Source: Eledone cirrhosa (Eukaryota). From it: 21,682 bases of DNA. Each line of letters opens with the position of its first letter. Within the stretch, counting starts at the first letter, position 1. The notes below the pieces were generated by a model. The model ran no database searches, had not been told where the DNA came from, and saw only the letters and a list, made by a program, of their open reading frames with translations. A program made the translations under genes and the position numbers. The stretch is from NCBI GenBank assembly GCA_964016885.1, contig CAXHJY010000650.1, forward strand, positions 1-21,682, in the 5' to 3' direction. Positions 300 through 21,682 of the stretch are shown piece by piece.

Positions 300-1847
300 C
301 GAGCGGGACGGGCTCTGTCCCCTCTACAATCAACAACAATCAGCCAAAGCAGCAGCAGCAACAACAACAACAACCACAGCAACAGCGGTGGCGGCAGTCG
401 TAGTACCAGCAGCAACAACAAAAGTAACAGCAGCTCTGACGACAACAACAACAACCACAGCAACAGCGGTGGCGGCAGTCGTAGTACCAGCAGCAACAAC
501 AAAAGTAACAGCAGCTCTGACGACAACAACAACAACAACAAGAAAGAAAAACCAATCTCGTTTGCAGGTATCGCAAAGAACCTGGAAACCATCCTTATAA
601 CAAATGAGGAATTACAGGAAGCAAAGAAGATGGTGACGAAAACCGGACACCGAGCAATCTGCAAGGCAGCCGAAAACATTTTCGAAACCCAACAGCACTG
701 TACGGTCACGTAGCGTACAGTAAGCACAAAATCACGTAGGGTTGAAAGAGCCACAGAAGCTCAAATACAAAAAGCCTTAGGTTTTGTGTGGCAGCGGAAA
801 ACGCATATCACCTGAGGCAAGAAATATGCCACCGTGGACGTGCTTTTTGCCACACCCCAGGAGGCAAAGGCTCAATCCTTAGTGACCCTAAGGAGCGAGG
901 AAATTGTGTTGGTGCCCTCCTACTGCGGGCAAAAAATTGTGAAGGTCAAACTGACCCACGTCCCCTCCGGGACGTCCCCTTCTTGGCTGGCCGCGTCTGT
1001 CCTCGTCGGAATCGAGGACAAAACAACTGTACTGCAAGTACAGAAAAAAGTACGAGAAGATTGGGTAGGCACCTCCATTGAGATGTAAATTCAAACCAAC
1101 AAGGAGTACATCGAAGCTATCCCGGATGTGATAGACTTCGATAACGGCACTCAACTGCCCATAAGTGTTGAGGGCAAACGCTCGAAATGCTTTCGCTGTG
1201 GGTCGAAGACTCACCTCAGGGCCTTCTGCAATGAGAAGAACCTGCCGAAACCGGCTCCACTGCTACCAGCAACAGGACAGGCGGCAAGTAGGAAGGATAG
1301 GTCCGTGACACCCATACCCACGCCACGGAAATCAAGAACAGCAACAGCAGTGGAAGTATTAACAACAACAACAGTAATACCAACTGCAGATGCAACAGAG
1401 ACTCCACTGCAACCATCACCAACAAGAACAAATGAAAGAGTGGAGCTGGTACCCCTCCCCGACCTCACAGAATCGGACATGAAGTGTGAGGTGGGAGAGG
1501 GATGGCAAAAGGTCACAAGAAGGCACAAACGCAGAAGCAGCGCATCGTCGCCTTCGAAAAGGGAGGGAAGAAATGAAAAAAGGGTAAAGGCTACTGCAAA
1601 GAGACTTACAACACCAACACCACCAACACCATCACCACCCACACTAACACCACCATCACCACCGGCGGCAACCCCATCGCCAACAACAACAACACCTTCA
1701 ACACCACCACCACAAGAACCAACATCGCAAACACAACAACAAAACACACACACCCAGCAACAACGACAAGAAAATAGCAGAACCACACCTCACTCCCAGA
1801 AAAAGAAATGCACAGCAATAAATACACACAAGATATTAATGTCTTAG
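300..1847 (+). pseudogene. LINE ORF1 (gag-like nucleic-acid-binding protein), interrupted by in-frame stops
   Basis: One frame runs through KPISFAGIAK...VDVLFATPQE...VEGKRSK-CFRCGSKTHLRAFC (CX2CX4HX4C at 1188-1229) and a Pro/Thr-rich tail. Stops at ~711, ~813 and 1086. Start and end approximate. Confidence 0.8.
361..522 (+). repeat. 81-bp tandem duplication in the low-complexity ORF1 N-terminus
   Basis: 361-441 matches 442-522. The length is a multiple of 3, so frame is preserved. Confidence 0.9.
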
Positions 1848-2160
1848 ATAATTTGTCACGCAGACATTTCACAGCACGACTACATAATACCAGCACCAAT
1901 CAAAACACCAACGAACATAAGACTGCTAAAAATAGCACAGAAACATTACACAAACATTAAAATAAAATTCCCCAACGCAGTTGGTGATTTCAGAGACCTA
2001 GGAGAGACACTCAACGGGAGAGTATATTCGGATATACTCACAGAAGAGCCGACGACCAGCCGAAGGGACGATTCAACGGGAAAGGGATGGAGAAACCATC
2101 CTTCCTCTACGAGAAGTGAGGTAAGGTGGTCTTTCCCATCTTTTTCCACTCCTTTTCAAC

Positions 2161-4943
2161 ATGACCTCACTCAGAATTGGCAGCATAAATGCGCATGGCC
2201 TGGGGTCATCATGGAAGCAAGGCCACCTGCTCAACGACCTCAGGTCACTAAATATAGATGTAGTGGCCATCAGCGAGACCAGAATCTCCGAAGCACGGGC
2301 CTTCGCACCGATCTTCGGCGGCTACGATGTGTACGCATCTCCCAGCCGTCCTGGATCGGGGGAGGAGTTGCTGTGCTTTTTCGGAGAGGTTTGAATCTCG
2401 CCATACGGGCCATCTTCCTGGACCCAGAAGGTAAGTTGGTGGTGCTGGACGTGACCAGCGGAGACGGGCAAGCTTTCAGGCTAGTGGCCATCTATGCCGC
2501 GACAGGAGCAGGGCGGCCTGATTTCTTCCGGCGTCTGGAGACCTTTCTTGGAACGTCCCGCTCTTTAGTGTTAGTGGGCGACTGAAAGGGGATCTTAGAT
2601 GCACGCTGGGACTGTGTGAGATTAGCGGATAGGAGAGGAGTGTATAAAAGCCTCGCAAACCTGCTCAGACGGTTTCAACTGTCTGACAGGTACCGTCTGG
2701 ATTTCCCGAATGTGCAAATGTGGACATGGACAAACCGCATCGAGTCATCCAGATCATATCTAGATAGGGTATTCTGTAGGGAAATAGATAGGTCTAGCAT
2801 AGGCTGTACACATTTCAAAATAGTCGACTACACGGACCACAAATTCGTGATCTGTGAGGTTGACTTAGATAGGCTTCATAGACAGGGACCCGGCTACTGG
2901 AAGCTAAACGCGTCATTAACAGCGCGCAAGGCCTACAGAGACCGGATTAGCGAACTAGTTAAGCGGGCGTTGACGGGGGCCATCGTCAACAACAAATGGT
3001 GGTTTGCTCTGAAAAGAGCGATTAGAATAGAGTCCATTAGGTTTAGTAAGCCTTTAGCAATAGAGAAAAATAGAGCAGAGGGAGAACTAGTTAGAAAATT
3101 AGACGAGGCGCTTAGTAAAGGCATCGCGACCGACGTACTTGCGGCGAATTCTTCAATGCAAAGCTCGAAGGCTGCGTTGTCAGAGCTAGAGTGCGTGCTC
3201 TTAGACACGACGAGACGAAAGCCGTTCAATGGGCCCGAGTGGCGGAGGCGCGTCGTGGCAACAAAGCCACGATCCGGTCTTTGGTGGACGACTACGGGCG
3301 CATGCTACTCGATCCCGCCCAAATGTGTGAAGCTTTTCAGCGACACTTCGCTCAGCTGTACGGGGGCAGCGGCGATCCGGATCGAGAGATGGACTTTAGT
3401 GCCTAACTTGACGGACTGCCGCGGCTTTCGGCCACTGAATCGGAGTGTTGCGAAAAGCCGATAACAACCGCTGAAGTACGGGAGGCAATGACTGGCTGCA
3501 CAAGAGTAAAATCGCCTGGTTTGGTTGGTCTGCCCTATGAAATTTACGTACAGATGCCAAACCTGTTCGGAGGCCTCTTGGCGGACGTCTACTGCAACTG
3601 GCAACAGAACGGGAGAATGCCCAGCTATGTGAGCCGAGGAGCGGTGGGGCTGCTGAGAAAGGATCCGAACAAGGAGGATAACATATATAATTTCAGGCCT
3701 ATAACTTTGCTAAACACAGAGTTCAAGATTTTTGCCAAGGTGCTAACAAAGAGGTTGGCGCTTGTCGTTGGTGTTCTGGTGGGAGAGGCGCAGACATGCG
3801 ACAGATCCATCCACGACAACCTCCACCTCGTGCGATACATCGTTAAGAGGGTAGCTAGGGAATCTGGCACGGATGGGTCCTTGATCAATTTAGATCAGTC
3901 GAAAGCTTTCGATAGGTTCGACCATCGTTACCTAGCGGCAGTCCTGAGGGCGGCTGGCTTTGGGCCCGTCTTCAGAGGCTGGATCGCTGCCATGCACAGC
4001 GACATCTGCTCTGTGGTGAGAGTGAACGGTCACCTTTCGGAACCGTTCAACATCATGTGCTCGGTCCGCCAAGGATGTCCCCTCTCGTCCCTCTTGTACG
4101 TATTGACTCTCGAGCCATTACTGCACAAACTGGAGACGTTGATGGGAGTCCCGCGCGAACTAGGATGCGGAAGATCCGTGTCAGCATATGCGGACGATGT
4201 CACCGTAGTGGTGTCGAACGCCAAACACATCGAGGCAATCGGCACTACACTAAGAGAATACGAAGCGGTGACAGGAGCAATGATCAATCAGGAAAAGTCG
4301 GTGGGCCTGCAGCTCGGCACCTGGAGAGGCAGGTCCATGCCGTCCAGCAGCGTCGTCGGGCGCTGGACGGACGGACCGGTTAAATTGCTAGGGGTCTGGT
4401 TCGGTCCGGACCTCCAGACGGACAAAAACTGGGACGAGGTGACGAGCAGGGTGGCTTCTCTCACTCAGAAATAGGCAGAGAGGCAGCTATCCCTGAAAGG
4501 TCGAGCGGAGGTGGCGAATGCGTACATCGCGTCCGTCATCTTCTACCGCCTGACCGTCGTGCCTTGTCCTAAGCAGGGCAACGAAACCGTCCTGCACGCA
4601 CTCGTCCAGTGTCCGAGCATTGCTGACTTGTGGGTTTATGTCGAACTCCTGCTGTCGCGTGTAGGATGGATCCAGCTATGAGCTGAGTCCATCGTGAGAT
4701 TTCCCCGCCCCCTTCCTTTAGCCGGGAAGGGCAAGCAGTTTTTATCTGTCTGGTGGCCATGGCGAAAGAGATAGTATGGTGGACCTCTTCGGTGATGCCC
4801 TGATTAACTTTTTCAAATTTCATTTGAAAAGGAAAATCAGGGTAGAGAGGGAAGTGCTCTCTTCCCAGCATTTTGTTGAAAGATGGGTGAGGGAGGCAAG
4901 AATGGCCCGAGTGAATGGGCCTACGCTGAGTATATGCCTGTAA
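2161..4943 (+). pseudogene. LINE ORF2 (APE endonuclease + reverse transcriptase), frameshifted, with stops
   Basis: APE motifs SINAHGL, VAISET, GGVAVL, VAIYA, LVGD, WTW..SYLDRVF, TDHKFV, then WKLN. RT motifs KSPG, FRPITLLN, LDQSKAFD, VRQGCPLS, YADD (4187-4198), INQEKS, LLGV. C-terminal ETVLHALVQCP. Final stop 4941-4943. Confidence 0.93.
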
Positions 4944-5214
4944 ATTGAAGGTGGAAAACTGGGAGAAGGCACTTGCCCTGGTGGTCAGAGTCACCGTGGC
5001 TTTTTTTAATGGGCTTTCTCCACGAATGTCCCTAGGAAGTCTCCCCCCTATTGGGGAATTTTTCATTGTTTCTTTTTTTGTTACAACCTCTGTTTTTTGT
5101 TTTTTTACACGCAGAAATGCCCGTTTGTACCGTCCTGTATTGTCCTGTACTGTCCTTAATGTCTACTTTGTGTAAACCCTTGTGGTTAATAAAGAAAGCA
5201 TTATTATTGTTCCG

Positions 5215-7133: not shown

Positions 7134-8217
<1,084 letters not shown>

Positions 8218-8287
8218 AAATGGAACGGGAACAAAACAGAGGCAGTACGAACAAAGGTTTATTAGTTTCACAGTCTTGAGAGTGGGG

Positions 8288-8596
8288 TGTGGTATATATA
8301 TATAATAATAATAGTAATAATAATAATAATAAATTTGAAGACTAATATATATAAAATTGTAAATTTGAAGAACAGTCAGATAAAATATACTCAATTTTTC
8401 TTCTCCCTAGTCCGTAGAAATTAACTAGATAAATAATTATTTATCAAGTTAATTTATCTATTTATATATTTAAATGATTATAATCATTTAAATATATATA
8501 TATATAATTTGTTTTGGAACTAACTCTATACCGAACTCGTCCTCTGGATTGAGTGCTCTATATACTATGAATATAACCGCCCCGTTTTTTACCACA
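8288..8596 (+). mobile_element. Probable 3' LTR of an LTR retrotransposon
   Basis: Termini TGTGGTA...TACCACA (TG..CA, 7-bp inverted ends), immediately preceded by PPT-like GAGAGTGGGG. No coding region seen. Confidence 0.5.
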
Positions 8597-8763: not shown

Positions 8764-8871
8764 TGTTTCTACTTTTGGCACAAGGCCAGCAATTAACCAG
8801 TGTATTACTGGTACTTTATTTTATCGACCCCGTAAGGATGAAAGCAAAGTTAACCTCGGCGGGATTTGAAC
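8764..8871 (-). mobile_element. 5'-truncated tRNA-derived SINE with 14-bp TSD
   Basis: Flanked by ATCTGATATATAAT at 8750-8763 and 8872-8885. Truncated within the B box (GTTCAAATCC). Confidence 0.88.
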
Positions 8872-8966
8872 ATCTGATATATAATGATTGGAAAACTGCG
8901 AGACTGGCCAATTTATTATTTTACATCACGTTATTAAAATAAGTTGGATTACTTTGAATAAATAAT

Positions 8967-9132
8967 TGTTTCTACTTTTGGCACAAGGCCAGCAATTATC
9001 CCAGTGTATTACTGGTACTTTATTTTATCGACCCCTTAAGGATGAAAGGCGGGTTTTGAACTCAGTCCGTAAAGGGACGTAACTGTGCTGCAAAGCATGG
9101 CGTCCGACCCTCTACTGATACTGCCAATCCAC
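8967..9132 (-). mobile_element. Near full-length tRNA-derived SINE with 18-bp TSD and small internal deletion
   Basis: Flanked by TTACTTTGAATAAATAAT (8949-8966, 9133-9150). Minus strand has A-box-like TGGCAGTATCAG and B-box-like GAGTTCAAAACC. Confidence 0.88.
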
Positions 9133-9150
9133 TTACTTTGAATAAATAAT

Positions 9151-9321
9151 TGTTTCTACGTTAGGCACAAGGCCAGCAATTACCCAGTGCATTACTGGTA
9201 CTTTATTTTATCGACCCCGTAAGGATGAAAGGCAAAGTCAACCTCGGCGGGATTTGAACTCAGATCGTAAAGGGACGTAACTATGCTGGAAAGCATGGCG
9301 TCCGACCCTCCACCGATACTG
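9151..9321 (-). mobile_element. tRNA-derived SINE, tandem with the previous copy
   Basis: Minus strand GAGTTCAAATCC B box, then GCCTTTCATCCTTACGGGGTCGATAAAATAAAGTACCAG central domain (resembles Meta-type SINE cores, from recall) and GGCCTTGTGCC..AGAAACA tail. Confidence 0.88.
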
Positions 9322-10254: not shown

Positions 10255-10325
10255 TATTTTATCTGACGAAAACGCAAATGTTATTGCATGATGATATTTG
10301 TTTTTGAAATGCGCATAATAAAATA
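10255..10325 (+). ncRNA. Type I hammerhead ribozyme (PLE/retrozyme-like, palindromic stem III)
   Basis: TATTTTAT-CTGACGA-[AAACGCAAATGTTATT GCAT GATGATATTTGTTTTT]-GAAA-TGCGCAT-A-ATAAAATA. Perfect 8-bp stem I, 16-bp stem II with 1 mismatch, self-complementary ATGCGCAT, predicted cleavage after AUA (10317). Confidence 0.85.
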
Positions 10326-10734: not shown

Positions 10735-13700
10735 TGTTGGGCCCTGACCGCATAATTTTAACTTGTCTAGTAATAGTGGACCCATAAGACATAATTTTAA
10801 CTTGTCTAGTAATGGTGGGCCCAGAAGACATAATTTTAACTAGTCTAGTAATGGTAGGCCCAGAAGACAATTTTAACTAATCTAGTAATGGTCGGCCCAG
10901 GAGACATAATTTTAACTAATCTAGTAATGGTAGGCCCAGAAGACATAATTTTAACTTGTCTAGTAATGGTCGGCCCAGAAGACAATTTTAACTAATCTAG
11001 TAATGGTCGGCCCAGAAGACATAATTTTAACTAATCTAGTAATGGTAGGCCCAGAAGACATAATTGTAACTTGTCTAGTAATGGTAGGCCCAGAAGACAT
11101 AATTTTAACTAATCTAGTAATGGTCGGCCCAGAAGACATAATTTTACTAATCTAGTAATGGTCGGCCCAGAAGACATAATTTTAACTTGTCTAGTAATGG
11201 TAGGCCCAGAAGACATAATTTTAACTAGTCTAGTAATGGTAGGCCCAGAAGACATAATTTTAACTAGTCTAGTAATGGTAGGCCCAGAAGACATAATTTT
11301 AACTAGTCTAGTAATGGTAGGCCCAGAAGACATAATTTTAACTAGTCTAGTAATGGTAGGCCCAGAAGACATAATTTTAACTAGTCTAGTAATGGTAGGC
11401 CCAGAAGACATAATTTTAACTTGTCTAGTAATGGTAGGCCCAGAAGACGTAATTTTAACTAGTCTAGTAATGGTAGGCCCAGAAGACATAATTTTAACTA
11501 GTCTAGTAATGGTCGGCCCAGAAGACATAATTTTAACTAATCTAGTAATGGTAGGCCCAGAAGACATAATTTTAACTTGTCTAGTAATGGTCGGCCCAGA
11601 AGACAATTTTAACTAATCTAGTAATGGTCGGCCCAGAAGACATAATTTTAACTAGTCTAGTAATGGTAGGCCCAGAAGACATAATTTTAACTTGTCTAGT
11701 AATGGTAGGCCCAGAAGACATAATTTTAACTAGTCTAGTAATGGTCGGCCCAGAAGACATAATTTTAACTAGTCTAGTAATGGTAGGCCCAGAAGACATA
11801 ATTTTAACTTGTCTAGTAATGGTAGGCCCAGAAGACATAATTTTACTAATCTAGTAATGGTCGGCCCAGAAGACATAATTTTACTAATCTAGTAATGGTC
11901 GGCCCAGAAGACAATTTTAACTAGTCTAGTAATGGTAGGCCCAGAAGACATAATTTTAACTTGTCTAGTAATGGTAGGCCCAGAAGACATAATTTTAACT
12001 AATCTAGTAATGGTCGGCCCAGAAGACATAATTTTAACTAGTCTAGTAATGGTAGGCCTAGAAGACATAATTTTAACTTGTCTAGTAATGGTAGGCCCAG
12101 AAGACATAATTTTACTAATCTAGTAATGGTCGGCCCAGAAGACATAATTTTACTAATCTAGTAATGGTCGGCCCAGAAGACATAATTTTACTAATCTAGT
12201 AATGGTCGGCCCAGAAGACATAATTTTACTAATCTAGTAATGGTCGGCCCAGAAGACATAATTTTACTAATCTAGTAATGGTAGGCCCAGAAGACATAAT
12301 TTTACTAATCTAGTAATGGTCGGCCCAGAAGACATAATTTTAACTAGTCTAGTAATGGTAGGCCCAGAAGACATAATTTTAACTTGTCTAGTAATGGTAG
12401 GCCCAGAAGACATAATTTTACTAATCTAGTAATGGTCGGCCCAGAAGACATAATTTTACTAATCTAGTAATGGTAGGCCCAGAAGACATAATTTTACTAA
12501 TCTAGTAATGGTCGGCCCAGAAGACATAATTTTAACTAGTCTAGTAATGGTAGGCCCAGAAGACATAATTTTAACTTGTCTAGTAATGGTAGGCCCAGAA
12601 GACATAATTTTAACTAATCTAGTAATGGTCGGCCCAGAAGACATAATTTTAACTAGTCTAGTAATGGTAGGCCCAGAAGACATAATTTTAACTTGTCTAG
12701 TAATGGTAGGCCCAGAAGACATAATTTTACTAATCTAGTAATGGTCGGCCCAGAAGACATAATTTTAACTAGTCTAGTAATGGCAGGCCCAGAAGACATA
12801 ATTTTAACTTGTCTAGTAATGGTCGGCCCAGAAGACATAATTTTACTAATCTAGTAATGGTCGGCCCAGAAGACATAATTTTACTAATCTAGTAATGGTA
12901 GGCCCAGAAGACATAATTTTAACTAGTCTAGTAATGGTAGGCCCAGAAGACATAATTTTAACTAGTCTAGTAATGGTCGGCCCAGAAGACATAATTTTAA
13001 CTAATCTAGTAATGGTAGGCCCAGAAGACATAATTTTAACTTGTCTAGTAATGGTAGGCCCAGAAGACATAATTTTAACTAATCTAGTAATGGCCGGCTC
13101 AGGAGACATAATTTTAACTGGTCTAGTAATGGTAGGCCCAGAAGACATAATTTTAACTAGTCTAGTAATGGTAGGCCCAGAAGACATAATTTTAACTTGT
13201 CTAGTGATGGTAGGCCCAGAAGACATAATTTTAACTTGTCTAGTAATGGTCGGCCCAGGAGACATAATTTTACTAATCTAGTAATGGTCGGCCCAGAAGA
13301 CATAATTTTAACTAGTCTAGTAATGGTAGGCCCAGAAGACATAATTTTAACTAGTCTAGTAATGGTAGGCCCAGAAGACATAATTTTAACTAATCTAGTA
13401 ATGGTCGGCCCAGAAGACATAATTTTAACTAGTCTAGTAATGGTAGGCCCAGAAGACATAATTTTAACTAGTCTAGTAATGGTAGGCCGAGAAGACATAA
13501 TTTTAACTAATCTAGTAATGGTCGGCCCAGAAGACATAATTTTAACTAGTCTAGTAATGGTAGGCCCAGAAGACATAATTTTAACTCGTCTAGTAATGGT
13601 CGGCCCAGAAGACATAATTTTAACTAGTCTAGTAATGGTAGGCCCAGAAGATATAATTTTAACTTGTCTAGTAATGGTAGGCCCAGAAGACATAATTTTA

Positions 13701-14100
13701 ACTTGTCTAGTAATGGTAGGCCCAGAAGACACATAATTTTAACTAATGGCCCAGAAGACATAATTTTAACTAATCTAGTAATGGACGGCTCAGGAGACAT
13801 AATTTTAACTGGTCTAGTAATGGTAGGCCCAGAACACATAATTTTAACTTGTCTAGTAATGGTAGGCCCAGAAGACATAATTTTAACTTGTCTAGTAATG
13901 GTCGGCCCAGAATACATAATTTTAACTTGTCTAGTAATGGTGGGCCTAGAAGACATAATTTTAACTAATCTAGCAATGGTAGGCCCAGAAGACATACTTT
14001 TAACTAGTCTAGTAATGGTAGGCCCAGAAGACATAATTTCAATTATGGGCCCTAAACACAACATTTCATTTAGTCAAGTAATTTTGGGCCCTGAAGACCT
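10735..14100. repeat. 39-bp minisatellite array (~86 units, estimated from length)
   Basis: Unit CTAGTAATGGT(A/C)GGCCCAGAAGACATAATTTTAACT(AG/TG/AA)T, with 38- and 37-bp variants and degenerate edges. Confidence 0.97.
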
Positions 14101-14574: not shown

Positions 14575-17467
<2,893 letters not shown>

Positions 17468-17633
17468 ATATTGTTATACTTTGGGAGGGTCATGTTGCCA
17501 ATAAGAAACACACGCACCAGTTGCTTTCACTTCAATTTATTATATATTTATAAATTTATAAATTTACAAATTTACAAACCTATAAATTTCTGGTTGGTTG
17601 GTTGGTTCCACAACCAGATAGTTGTTTATATAT

Positions 17634-17678
17634 AGTCATAGTCCTTTCGTCACACACTCTGTGACCTCTTCAGTGACT
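17634..17678 (-). ncRNA. Minimal hammerhead ribozyme motif (left arm)
   Basis: AGTCA-CTGAAGA-G-GTCACA gagtg TGTGAC-GAAA-GGAC-TA-TGACT. Perfect stem I, one extra G before stem II, minimal stem III. Confidence 0.65.
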
Positions 17679-17799
17679 GGGGATTCCTTTCTTCGTTTCT
17701 GTGCCTTTCCTTTCTTCTATCCTACGCCATTTTGTTTCTGAAACAAAATGGCGTAGGATAGAAGAAAGGAAAGGGACAGAAACGAAGAAAGGAATCCCC

Positions 17800-17844
17800 A
17801 GTCACTGAAGAGGTCACAGAGTGTGTGACGAAAGGACTAAGACT
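17800..17844 (+). ncRNA. Minimal hammerhead ribozyme motif (right arm)
   Basis: Same as the left arm but stem I 3' strand is AGACT, giving a mismatch next to the cleavage site. Confidence 0.6.
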
Positions 17845-18066
17845 ATATATAAACAACTATCTGGTTGTGGAACCAACCAACCAACCAGAAATTTATAGGT
17901 TTGTAAATTTGTAAATTTATAAATTTATAAATATATAATAAATTGAAGTGAAAGCAACTGGTGCGTGTGTTTCTTATTGGCAACATGACCCTCCCAAAGT
18001 ATAACAATATCGGTTTCAACACACGATTTCAGATAAAGAATCTTGCGAAACAAATTCAGAAACGTT

Positions 18067-18161
18067 ATATATATATACATATATATATATAAATAGATAC
18101 ATATATAAATAAATATATATATATAAATATATATATATAAATAAATATATATATATATATA

Positions 18162-18193
<32 letters not shown>

Positions 18194-18304
18194 AATATAA
18201 ATATATATATATAAATATATATATATAAATATATATATATATAAATATATATATGTAAATATAAATATATATAAATATATATATATAAATATATATATAT
18301 AAAT

Positions 18305-18335
<31 letters not shown>

Positions 18336-18592
18336 AATATATATATATAATATATATATATATTTATATATATATATTTATATATATATATTTATATATA
18401 TATATTTATATATATATATTTATATATATATATATTTATATATATATATATTTATATATATATTTATATATATATTTATATTTATATATATATTTATATA
18501 TATATTTATATATATATTTATAAACATAGATTTATATTTATATATATATATATATTTATATATATATTTATATACATATATTTATATTTATA

Positions 18593-18672
<80 letters not shown>

Positions 18673-18711
18673 AATATATAAATAGATATATATAAATTTA
18701 TATATATAAAA

Positions 18712-18742
<31 letters not shown>

Positions 18743-18815
18743 AATAAATATATATATATATAAATATATATATACATAAATATATATATAAATATATATA
18801 TATATAGAAATAAAT

Positions 18816-18898
<83 letters not shown>

Positions 18899-19069
18899 AT
18901 ATATAAATATATATATATAATATATAAATATATATATATATATAATATATAAATATATATATATAATATATAAATATATATATAAATATATATATATACT
19001 TATAAATATATATATAAATATATATATAAATATATATATAAATATATATATAAATATATATATATATAA

Positions 19070-19098
<29 letters not shown>
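18067..19098. repeat. Degenerate (TA)n/TAAA field
   Basis: Direct observation. Confidence 0.95.
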
Positions 19099-19100
<2 letters not shown>

Positions 19101-19870
19101 CGATATTAAACAAATGGAAACTATATTTATAAAACCATATTTATTTCATTATACATATTTCAGGGATACCATATTAAAAATATGGCATGCCTTCGTCAGA
19201 TAAAATACAATATATAACCAGTTTTATAAATAATTTTGACGTACCATAAATATAGCGACCATTAATGTAGGAGGCTGGTTTGGTAGTGAAGTGTTTATAA
19301 ATATTTAGTGTTAATCACAGTTACAAATAAAGACGGAGAAAAAGAAGAAATGTATGTAAAGAAAACCAGAGAGAAATAGAGAGAAATAGGGGAGTGAGAA
19401 AGAGGGAGGAGGTAAAAAAGAGAGGCAACCGAAGGCAACAGATGAATAATAATAATTCATCATACAAATTGAGAGATTTAAGAGGGAGGGAGTACGGTAA
19501 TTATTTAGTTATAGTGTAAAGCACAGTTAGAGAAGAGACAGACTGAAAAGAAAGAGGGAGAAAAAAATATTAATAATTATATAGGGGGAGGTGAAAATCA
19601 AGAGAGAAGTAAGAGAGAAACATGAGAGGCAAAGTCAAAACAACAGATACATAAACTTCATCATATATAAAGAGAGAGGGGAAGCAAGAGCTGTATCTAG
19701 AGAGAGGGATGATAGGTTTACATCTTTACGTCATGTCCTATCAATTTGAATTATCAATTCATATGAACTGGGTAATACAATGTAAATATCAATATTCATG
19801 AATGAGACATAGATATATAATGTGTGAAAATAATTTTGCTCAATAATGACCATATGTTTAGTTTAAAACT
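19099..19870 (-). mobile_element. Probable 3' end of a Penelope-like element (CT-rich 3' UTR + hammerhead), ending in (TA)n
   Basis: Hammerhead lies ~40 nt from the terminus. The terminus recurs at 16013-16054. Weak GIY-YIG C-terminal remnants (IWSLL, LCL) on the minus strand near 19790-19860. Confidence 0.55.
19142..19207 (-). ncRNA. Type I hammerhead ribozyme, same family as 10255-10325
   Basis: TATTTTAT-CTGACGA-[AGGCATGCCATATT TTT AATATGGTATCCCT]-GAAA-TATGTAT-A-ATGAAATA. Confidence 0.85.
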
Positions 19871-19874
19871 CTGA

Positions 19875-20778
19875 GGTCTAATAAAAATATTTTCGACGAA
19901 AAAGCGCAGTATTACAATGAAGCGTTAGCTAGAGCAGGATATAGTGATCAAATTAAGTACATCGATAATAATAAGCAAACTAACCAAAATAATAACAATT
20001 TTAATTACGGTAACAACATTAACAACTAGTAACAACATTAACAACTATAATAGAAAACATTACAATAATTCCAAAAGCCAGAAAAGAAATAGAACTAGAA
20101 ATATAATATGGTCCCCCCCCCCCTTTCTCACTAAATATTAAAACCCACATTGCTAAACTATTCTTTAATGCTCTTGACAAACGCTTCCCTAGAACACATA
20201 AATATCACTCAATTTTTAATAGACATACTATAAAATTAACTTACTCGTCCACCAAAAATTTAGCACAAAATATTAACAGAATAAATAATAGGAATTTGAA
20301 ACCTAACCAAAATACCAATAATAACCCAAACAATATTCAATTAAACAACTGTAACTGTAGAAATAAATCTAAATGTCCGTTAAATAACAATTGCTTAGTT
20401 AAAAATATAATATACAATTGTAATGTTAAAACTAACTTAAATTCTTTCAACTATGTTGGTTCCACCTCGACAGAATTTAAACTTCGCTTCAATAATCATA
20501 AGAATTCTTTCACAGATCCAAACAAAAAATCTTCAACCTCACTATCAAGCTTACTCTGGCAACTTAAACGTGATAACGTTGGGTATTCGATGTTTTGGAA
20601 TATTGTCTCAAGAGGGATTCCTTTTAATTCCTCATCTGAGACATGTGATCTCTGTGTGGAGGAGATATTCTTTATATTAAAATCCAAAAATTCCCTTAAT
20701 CTAAGGAGCAATTTATTCAGTTGCTGCAGACATAGATTGAACTCAACGTTTAAATATAAATATAAATTTAAAATGTAG
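19875..20778 (+). pseudogene. 5'-truncated Penelope-like element ORF: RT C-terminal region + Cys-rich linker + GIY-YIG endonuclease
   Basis: SNKNIF..YYNEAL..AGY; RNIIW.PPFS.NIKT..F...DK.FP..H.Y.SIFNR.T.KLTYS; CNCR..KCPL...CL; IIY..YVG, KLRFNNH, CDLCVEE, LN.R, CRH. Two frameshifts: 19-bp duplication 20010-20047 and +1 in the C run 20113-20123. Confidence 0.88.
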
Positions 20779-21682
20779 TATAATTAATTAAGAAATTTAA
20801 TTAATGTATGAAACCTGACGATAAATCTTTCGATTCCTTCAATTTTTTCTTTTAAACCTTCTTCATAAATATAAACAAATGATGTAATTAAACTACTCTA
20901 AAATGTAGATGCTCCCAATGTATTAAATAAATTTTACGCAAGATAAATTTCTATACTAAATATAAGAGCATCCGTAGAACCACAGGGTCTTCTAAATCCT
21001 TTAAATGATTTTTGTTAAATAATTTTGGTTTTTATTTGCTTTTTGATTCTGATTGCTTCTAAAGAACTTGGCAATATATTGTCTGGAAAATTGGAAGGAT
21101 AGATTTCTGTGGTAAATATATGAAGCATACTGGGTTTTTGTGGCTTGAGATGCCCTAGGGTGTGTTGAAAATATTTTAATATTTTGATGTTTCTGTGCTG
21201 ATATATTGATATCTGGTTGTCTCTGTGCAAAGGCCATATGTATTAATATGCATATGGAATGATTACAGAGTATATTTTATCTGTTCATGTGCCTGTATGT
21301 GTGCAAGAGATGCTAGAACACTCACGCAGATGTCATATATATACATATATATGTATATATATGTGTAGGTATAGTTCTGTATATGTTACAGATATGCATA
21401 ATATTATATACATGAACGATGATCATTTGTGTGAGGAATGAATACTAATCGTTTATATTTTTTATGTATATATATATATATATATAGTGAAATCTTTTAT
21501 AACACAAGAAAAATTTCTTTTGTGAAACAAGAAATTAAAGAGTTGATCACGTAAAGTCATGTGTATGTCTATTTTATCAACTAGAGCTTGACATGACTTT
21601 CTCTTTCTCTTTTTCTTTTCTTTTTTCAGAAAGTGCATATGCATGTGTATGTATATATCTCCGTATTTTTATAAATAGGGTA

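Follow-up and report, generated by a model that had tools for sequence, protein, structure and literature searches.

A complete type I hammerhead motif, identified by inspection of sequence and pairing, occupies positions 19207-19142 on the minus strand of the window, the 21,682-nt stretch of Eledone cirrhosa DNA analyzed here (contig CAXHJY010000650.1). Together with its 41-nt tail and the (TA)n tract that follows, this motif is best read as the 3' end of a copy of a Hydra-clade PLE, a reading to which we assign a probability of about 70%. A hammerhead at a PLE end is a known arrangement, including in an octopus Hydra element, and the finding itself is therefore ordinary. The departures from the published table, judged from the sequence, are a long stem II, an AUA site and a mismatch kept at stem II pair 4. 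A high-copy set of natural variants of this kind bears on the question of whether retrotransposition of PLEs requires cutting by their hammerheads or whether these are kept to serve otherwise. The features discussed below are collected in Table 1.

Table 1. Hammerhead copies, parts of the 19207 motif and adjoining features in the window (X1 is one of the sequencing runs)
Feature	Position	Strand	Remarks
Type I hammerhead motif	19142..19207	-	Predicted cut between 19150 and 19149; descriptor, shuffles
Stem I, 5' strand, 8 nt	19207-19200	-	
Core CUGACGA	19199-19193	-	
Stem II insert, 31 nt	19192-19162	-	13/14 positions paired, C·C at position 4
GAA	19161-19159	-	
Stem III ATATGTAT, self-complementary	19158-19151	-	
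A17 of the AUA site	19150	-	
Stem I, 3' strand	19149-19142	-	Stem I of 8 bp with one G·U
3' tail, 41 nt	19141-19101	-	Ends at (TA)n; weak hairpin, ATGG/CCAT stem
TA-rich microsatellite, ~1 kb	18066..19100	.	3' end of the element; likely target site
Non-coding arm	19208..19867	-	Pyrimidine-rich on minus; putative inverted 3'-UTR arm
Hydra-clade PLE ORF remnant, 5'-truncated, frameshifted	19868..20778	+	
Start of the ORF's own 3' flank	20779..20840	+	Reached from the ORF end, as far as ~20840, by three X1 contigs
Sister hammerhead	10255..10325	+	5' strand of stem I and core as in 19207 motif; stem II of 16 positions; AUA
Decayed, 5'-truncated third copy, 19207 subfamily	15960..16056	+	Tail match; 0/500 shuffles reached the score

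The hammerhead motif and its controls

The 19207 motif contains the CUGANGA...GAAA core, the A15.1-U16.1 pair and the H17 of a type I hammerhead, and its three helices, with a stem I of 8 bp and a stem II paired at 13/14 positions, leave the stem I ends open. Its 10.1-11.1 pair is A-U, and there is no extra base after A9. Stem III, which is self-complementary at 8/8 positions in both the 19207 and the 10255 copies, amounts to 2 bp in a monomer and to 8 bp in a dimer.

A relaxed type I descriptor passed three of the 11 CUGANGA sites in the window; the site at 20815, just past the ORF remnant, was among those rejected. When the whole window was dinucleotide-shuffled 1000 times, the same descriptor yielded no match; with AT runs removed, it yielded one in 1000 shuffles. 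A stricter level, satisfied by the 19207 and 10255 copies, had no match in any shuffle. When stem II was shuffled, the observed pairing was reached in 0/200000 cases for the 19207 copy and 21/200000 for the 10255 copy, and slid registers retained 4-6 of 14 and 7-10 of 16 pairs, respectively. A resemblance that arose by chance in AT-rich DNA has some observations on its side, in that the 137 matches (E<=1) of an Rfam search of the window include no hammerhead, the whole-motif folding z-scores are modest (-2.5 for the 19207 copy and -0.6 for the 10255 copy) and a sequence-only pattern was found four times in metagenome contigs. The missing Rfam match is likely a consequence of the long stem II, and the four metagenome matches were rejected as relatives, since none adopts a hammerhead fold or lies close to a PLE ORF. 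The same pattern had no match in viral contigs. Chance resemblance is refuted by the descriptor, shuffle and slid-register controls, and we give it virtually no weight.

Comparison with the other copies in the window

The sister motif at 10255 has a 36-nt stem II insert with 15/16 positions paired and a C·U at position 4, followed further on by a stem III of ATGCGCAT, A17 and the 3' strand of stem I. With ~90 nt upstream and a ~31-nt tail, it forms a stand-alone unit of ~195 nt between TA tracts. A preliminary description of this DNA had proposed that the two copies share the 5' strand of stem I and the core, that their different stem II still pairs (14 bp with one mismatch in the 19207 copy), that stem III differs and is still self-complementary, and that both have an AUA site. 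Each of these statements agrees with our inspection; the 5'-most 16 bases are identical in both copies. The strand of the 19207 motif, which is minus, had not been given.

Over stem II pairs 1-7, nine letters differ between the copies, all nine by transition, and no pair is lost. Three pairs show double changes (G-C to A-U twice and U-A to C-G), two others have changed on a single side by way of G·U, and pair 4 remains mismatched, as C·C in the 19207 copy and C·U in the 10255 copy. The three changes in stem III and the one in stem I are likewise transitions only. Pairs 8-14 differ by two-sided transversions in 6/7 cases, and this distal hairpin looks replaced or out of register rather than changed by stepwise covariation. 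The earlier proposal that structure was kept despite sequence turnover is supported for stem I, stem III and the proximal part of stem II; for pairs 8-14, covariation is not supported. The purine/pyrimidine match at 7/7 of the proximal pairs occurred in 1.1% of shuffles, in a test chosen post hoc, and the comparison as a whole involves two full copies, a number that yields no covariation statistic.

The tails of the two copies are alike in position and length, as had been suggested; the likeness does not extend to their sequence, as the local alignment score was reached in 340/500 shuffles and the global comparison gave p=0.38. An ATGG...CCAT pair of segments is present in both tails; shuffling the 10255 tail produced it in 0.12% of cases, in a comparison that was likewise post hoc. 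The upstream flanks showed no significant likeness (score reached in 35/500 shuffles), and a plus-strand match of 19266-19327 to the upstream flank of the 10255 copy (12/500 shuffles, uncorrected, one of 11 tests) was set aside. Because the flanks lack significant likeness, family membership is shared at the level of the ribozyme alone. The two copies can thus be placed in a common ribozyme family, and not demonstrably in a common element family, which limits the earlier designation of the 19207 motif as a second hammerhead of the same family to the ribozyme, with its shared 16 bases and fold. The two motifs are likely cousins from different subfamilies in which the fold has been kept.

The third copy, at 15960-16056, has a tail 93% identical over 44 nt to that of the 19207 subfamily, together with GAA and a stem III remnant. 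It has no core, and its break lies inside stem II, not at the cut site. All three window copies (19207, 10255 and 15960-16056) end at (TA)n.

The neighboring ORF remnant and the intervening arm

From the end of the RT thumb, the ORF remnant runs through a CxCX5C linker into an endonuclease of the GIY-YIG type, in which CxxC and CxH are found; it retains the conserved E, and N198 is invariant. RWK, DKT, CxCX5C, CxxC and CxH are described as diagnostic of the Hydra clade (PMC8557442), and the last three, at which the remnant resembles the Hydra PLEs of that source, are the C-terminal motifs by which we assign it to a Hydra-clade PLE. The RWK/DKT region has been truncated away in the window, as has the RT core. 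Six longer homologues (35-44% identity, from 653 candidates) were available, and among them RW[KR] was found in 3/3 that extend to the N-terminus and DK[TS] in 5/5 long enough to include that motif. For four of the six homologues, a cluster look-up yielded no name. A Pfam search gave no family for the remnant and none above the cut-off for three homologues, and no relative of the ORF was found among 75 candidates in viral contigs.

The preliminary description had placed the hammerhead ~670 bp from this remnant, a distance that we measured as 661 bp, and had said nothing of the two being on opposite strands. The hammerhead is antisense to the adjoining ORF and upstream of it, so the ORF could be its partner only by way of an inverted 5' arm. 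Such an arm joining ribozyme and ORF is plausible. The arm at 19208-19867 holds no ORF and abuts the truncation point of the remnant with no intervening TA tract. It had no significant match to the ORF (score reached in 141/200 shuffles) or to the ORF's 3' flank (77/200), and its homology to 8290-8480 was non-significant. At the other end, sequence belonging to the 3' flank of the ORF seems to stop at ~20840, and a different repeat appears to begin at ~20845, where contigs from two runs (X5 and X6) join at 20845-20889. The suggestion that this ORF is the mobilizing partner therefore stands as far as the link to PLEs is concerned, through the Hydra motifs, the published arrangement and the reads; this particular ORF, being antisense, is no more than a plausible partner. 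We consider the chance that its family is the cognate partner of the hammerhead to be somewhat better than even, and the identity of the partner is the weakest link in the explanation of the motif as a PLE end.

Sequencing reads across the locus

Four of 10 runs were aligned to 19096-21000 at 80% likeness, three as contigs (X1, X5 and X6) and one as raw reads (X8). The tail, 19101-19141, was the deepest bin in 4/4 runs. In X1, the summed contig depths, which are to be read as ranks and not as copy numbers and to which AT-rich DNA may attract unrelated contigs, were 2.4M for the tail, 0.62M for the hammerhead, 84k for 19224-19287 and 11-67k for the ORF. The order was the same in X5 (tail 3030, hammerhead 348, ORF 16-96), and X6 gave 1237, 181 and 20-95, respectively, with little or nothing on the arm. 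Over 19160-19351, the depth fell from 620k to 84k to 7k in X1, with values of 348, 25 and 5 in X5 and 181, 39 and 39 in X6. On the arm, X1 reached 1.2-8.2k over 19288-19735 and 20-22k over 19736-19863; the former stretch is shallower than the ORF, which is not predicted by a simple 5'-truncation gradient of one family.

In X8, 12914 reads start at 19189 and 1519 at 19186, both inside stem II. These starts likely reflect a restriction cut that inflates the depth of this run, and they mean that many molecules carry a stem II of the 19207 type. Of 749 loose ends, 24 were listed. Among these, a CUGAUGA core precedes a stem II unlike that of the 19207 copy in 682 reads (agreement 0.53), and 759 reads (0.64) carry another 3' arm of stem II. 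The upstream flank diverges from 19214 onward in 4610 reads (0.95), and three X5 contigs (0.73) have an A for G at pair 7. No variant inside the hammerhead was found among the 40 of 529 variant rows listed. In some reads, the flank at 19102-19112 is other AT-rich sequence and not (TA)n.

Opposite-strand joints were detected just 5' of the hammerhead, connecting 19210-19224 to 19253, 19218 to 19218 and 19253 to 19253, and position 19253 takes part in six of the opposite-strand joints listed. These joints fit the inverted arms of PLEs, but library chimeras are possible in raw reads, and only one fold-back joint (19221-19253) is also present in a contig, from X1. A joint of 19217 to 19882, of unstated orientation type, was seen in four reads; it lies 14 nt from the window's own junction and so may be an allele of the same locus. 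In addition, head-to-tail joints in the tail connect 19156 to 19099 (7 reads, 3 starts) and 19154 to 19109 (2 reads), with the restart 5-7 nt away from where the cut is predicted. Ligated cleavage products might account for them, or just TA misalignment.

Comparison with published PLE hammerheads

In the available literature on octopus and cephalopod hammerheads, one source (PMC8557442) proved relevant, and the window motif is absent from its table. According to its supplement, (TA)n is preferred by 26/27 Hydra families, and 24/26 Hydra hammerhead rows are in sense, 87-425 nt from the 3' end. The other two rows are a hammerhead within a 5' repeat and an antisense one belonging to the inverted 5' copy that Penelope-13_HM carries, the latter being the geometry of this window (PMC8557442). 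PLEs typically have adjacent inverted 5'-truncated copies and 30-40-nt tails, and Hydra-1_oBim of Octopus bimaculoides ends ~30 nt past its hammerhead (PMC8557442); its ribozyme and ORF sequences, compared by eye, differ from those of the window. Like the Hydra-clade hammerheads of this table, the 19207 motif is of type I, lies near the 3' end, has a palindromic stem III and is followed by a short tail and (TA)n, and many of the published rows also lack G-C at 10.1-11.1. All 26 rows have a GUH site and a stem II of 3-7 bp, whereas the site here is AUA and stem II spans 14-16 bp, and the C·Y mismatch at pair 4 of both window copies is unlike these rows as well (PMC8557442 supplement). The published descriptor may exclude long stems.

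The metazoan PLE hammerheads described in PMC4209133 are mostly solo copies of truncated PLEs, with pairs on opposite strands; they vary greatly within a genome, show many compensatory changes, are weak in vitro and have a palindromic stem III implying dimers. The window motif shares with these minimal forms the solo copies, the pairs on opposite strands, the variability with compensatory changes and the palindromic stem III. In their consensus, A9 is followed by an extra base and there is a G10.1-C11.1 pair, in contrast to no extra base and A10.1-U11.1 here; stem II is 7-8 bp and stem I 4-5 bp long, compared with a stem II about twice as long and a stem I of 8 bp here (PMC4209133). A further source also holds that PLE hammerheads likely act as dimers (PMC6765202). 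Non-LTR retrozymes resemble the window in having a type I hammerhead, a non-coding mobile unit and PLE ends; in the available text they are defined by tandem hammerhead units, and no tandem array of whole units is present in the window (bioRxiv 10.64898/2026.07.22.740005). As the form with a long stem II and an AUA site is missed by Rfam, counts of such ribozymes are probably too low. The variants in a 2017 study of dimer cleavage may include long stems.

Proposed origin and modeled dimers

What the data show are the motif with its geometry, the adjoining Hydra-type ORF remnant in opposite orientation and numerous divergent relatives among the reads; the mechanism that follows is inferred from them. 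On the preferred reading, the RT/GIY-YIG protein of the element would nick (TA)n and begin reverse transcription from the tail. Short stubs, such as those of ~95 nt at 16000 and ~195 nt at 10255, would result where it stopped early, and through a template switch the inverted arm 19867-19101 would come to lie ahead of the truncated ORF. Since stem III closes poorly within one molecule, two ribozymes are predicted to pair through the palindromic stem III, exchange stem I strands and cleave after AUA, probably at a slow rate. Energies of -32.2 and -33.3 kcal/mol were obtained for the modeled hammerhead dimers; two monomers with stem III closed amount to 2 x -10.3 and 2 x -6.7 kcal/mol. In the unconstrained cofold minimum of the 10255 copy, the 8-bp intermolecular stem III and the swapped stem I are already present, while the minimum of the 19207 copy (-34.1 kcal/mol) is another dimer than the modeled hammerhead. 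The stem III duplex is strong in the 10255 copy (-10.5 kcal/mol) and weak in the 19207 copy (-2.2 kcal/mol), whose palindrome may be the product of CpG decay of a perfect one.

Self-cleavage at AUA is a predicted step and would probably be slow; published cleavage at AUA is up to orders of magnitude slower than at GUC or GUA (PMC3138052). The 19207 and 10255 copies both span the cut site, and must thus derive from uncut or re-ligated RNA. This is in line with results for an anole PLE, in which ribozyme mutants still insert in vitro and no reads end at the cut site (PMC11167929).

Alternative explanations

Three other accounts of the motif were weighed against a Hydra-clade 3' end. The hammerhead may have come from another (TA)n-targeting PLE family or clade and merely adjoin the Hydra ORF remnant. 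That the window is dense in TA-flanked inserts and includes a second, unrelated hammerhead family, that arm and ORF have no sequence link and that the motif is unlike all 26 published Hydra hammerhead rows would suit such an origin. We nevertheless consider it unlikely. The arm abuts the ORF truncation without a TA tract, an arrangement that is standard for inverted PLE copies; a short tail that runs into (TA)n is consistent with Hydra; and the 19217-19882 joint connects the hammerhead side with the ORF. It is somewhat unlikely that the fold is merely inherited, with copies that are catalytically near-dead and a structure kept for protein binding, priming or a similar role. The slow AUA site (PMC3138052), the low in vitro activity of PLE hammerheads (PMC4209133), the anole insertions in vitro that ribozyme mutants left unaffected (PMC11167929) and the spanning of the cut site by both full copies all argue for this account. 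Both full copies, however, retain every letter of the catalytic core and the NUH geometry although their stems have changed heavily, and this suggests that the core was under selection in the source elements.

Quite unlikely, in our judgment, is a non-autonomous element of ~155 nt (19253-19101), derived from a PLE end, transcribed alone and mobilized by PLE proteins in the manner of a solo retrozyme or SINE. The steep fall in depth over 19160-19351 in X1, X5 and X6, the recurrence of 19253 in opposite-strand joints, the short head-to-tail tail joints and the stand-alone 10255 copy between TA tracts would be explained by such a unit, and animal retrozymes have been argued to be PLE pLTR derivatives in which monomers are frequent (bioRxiv 10.64898/2026.07.22.740005). 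Against it, the three window copies start at differing points, as 5' truncation predicts, the upstream flanks of the two full copies are not significantly alike, whole hammerhead units are not arrayed in tandem in the window, and reads from other copies extend into 19288-19867. A bolder version, in which this element is abundant, its stem II is hypervariable and rebuilt, and the AUA hammerhead and tail hairpin serve as a handle for RT rather than as a nuclease, appears to us distinctly improbable. If it were true, a ~155-nt handle element would seed or expand the TA-rich tracts of the genome, and would constitute a class of long-stem hammerheads missed by Rfam and the published descriptors. 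The 3' end of a Hydra-clade PLE copy remains the reading that we prefer.

Other repeats in the window

A 543-nt near-perfect palindrome lies between TA tracts at 17468-18010, its right arm extending to ~18066, and each arm carries a hammerhead of a second, unrelated family (cores at 17673 on the minus and 17805 on the plus strand). These hammerheads have CUGAAGA, an extra G, G10.1-C11.1, a 6-bp stem II, AGGACU and a CUA site; in the one at 17805, a single change at 17840 disrupts stem I and is the sole reason that the descriptor fails. The longer arm has an ATG at 17985 followed by 28 open codons up to the TA tract. The palindrome looks like an inverted PLE terminal repeat with a tail.

A fold-back repeat of ~110 nt at 7610-7733, beside TA tracts, contains CUGAUGA on the minus strand and no full hammerhead, and the start of this repeat (7557-7572) is seen again at 15437-15452. 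The CUGACGA at 20815, 37 nt past the ORF stop, is accompanied by a 4-bp hairpin, without GAAA, and is possibly chance or a broken hammerhead. An identical 16-mer comprising the stem I 5' strand and CUG, with the rest of the core absent, is found at 8377-8392 (minus) and 21268-21283 (plus). At 16690-16870 and 8210-8300, more short stretches of unique sequence are inserted between TA tracts and are possibly other PLE tail stubs.

Beyond these, the remnant of a long non-LTR retrotransposon spans ~700-4950 and includes both an ORF1-like zinc knuckle and a domain for RT (RVT_1, E 6.7e-26), and a tandem satellite with a unit of ~39 bp spans ~10750-14050. A SINE-like repeat in three partial tandem copies occupies 8770-9320, which we take to resemble an octopus SINE.
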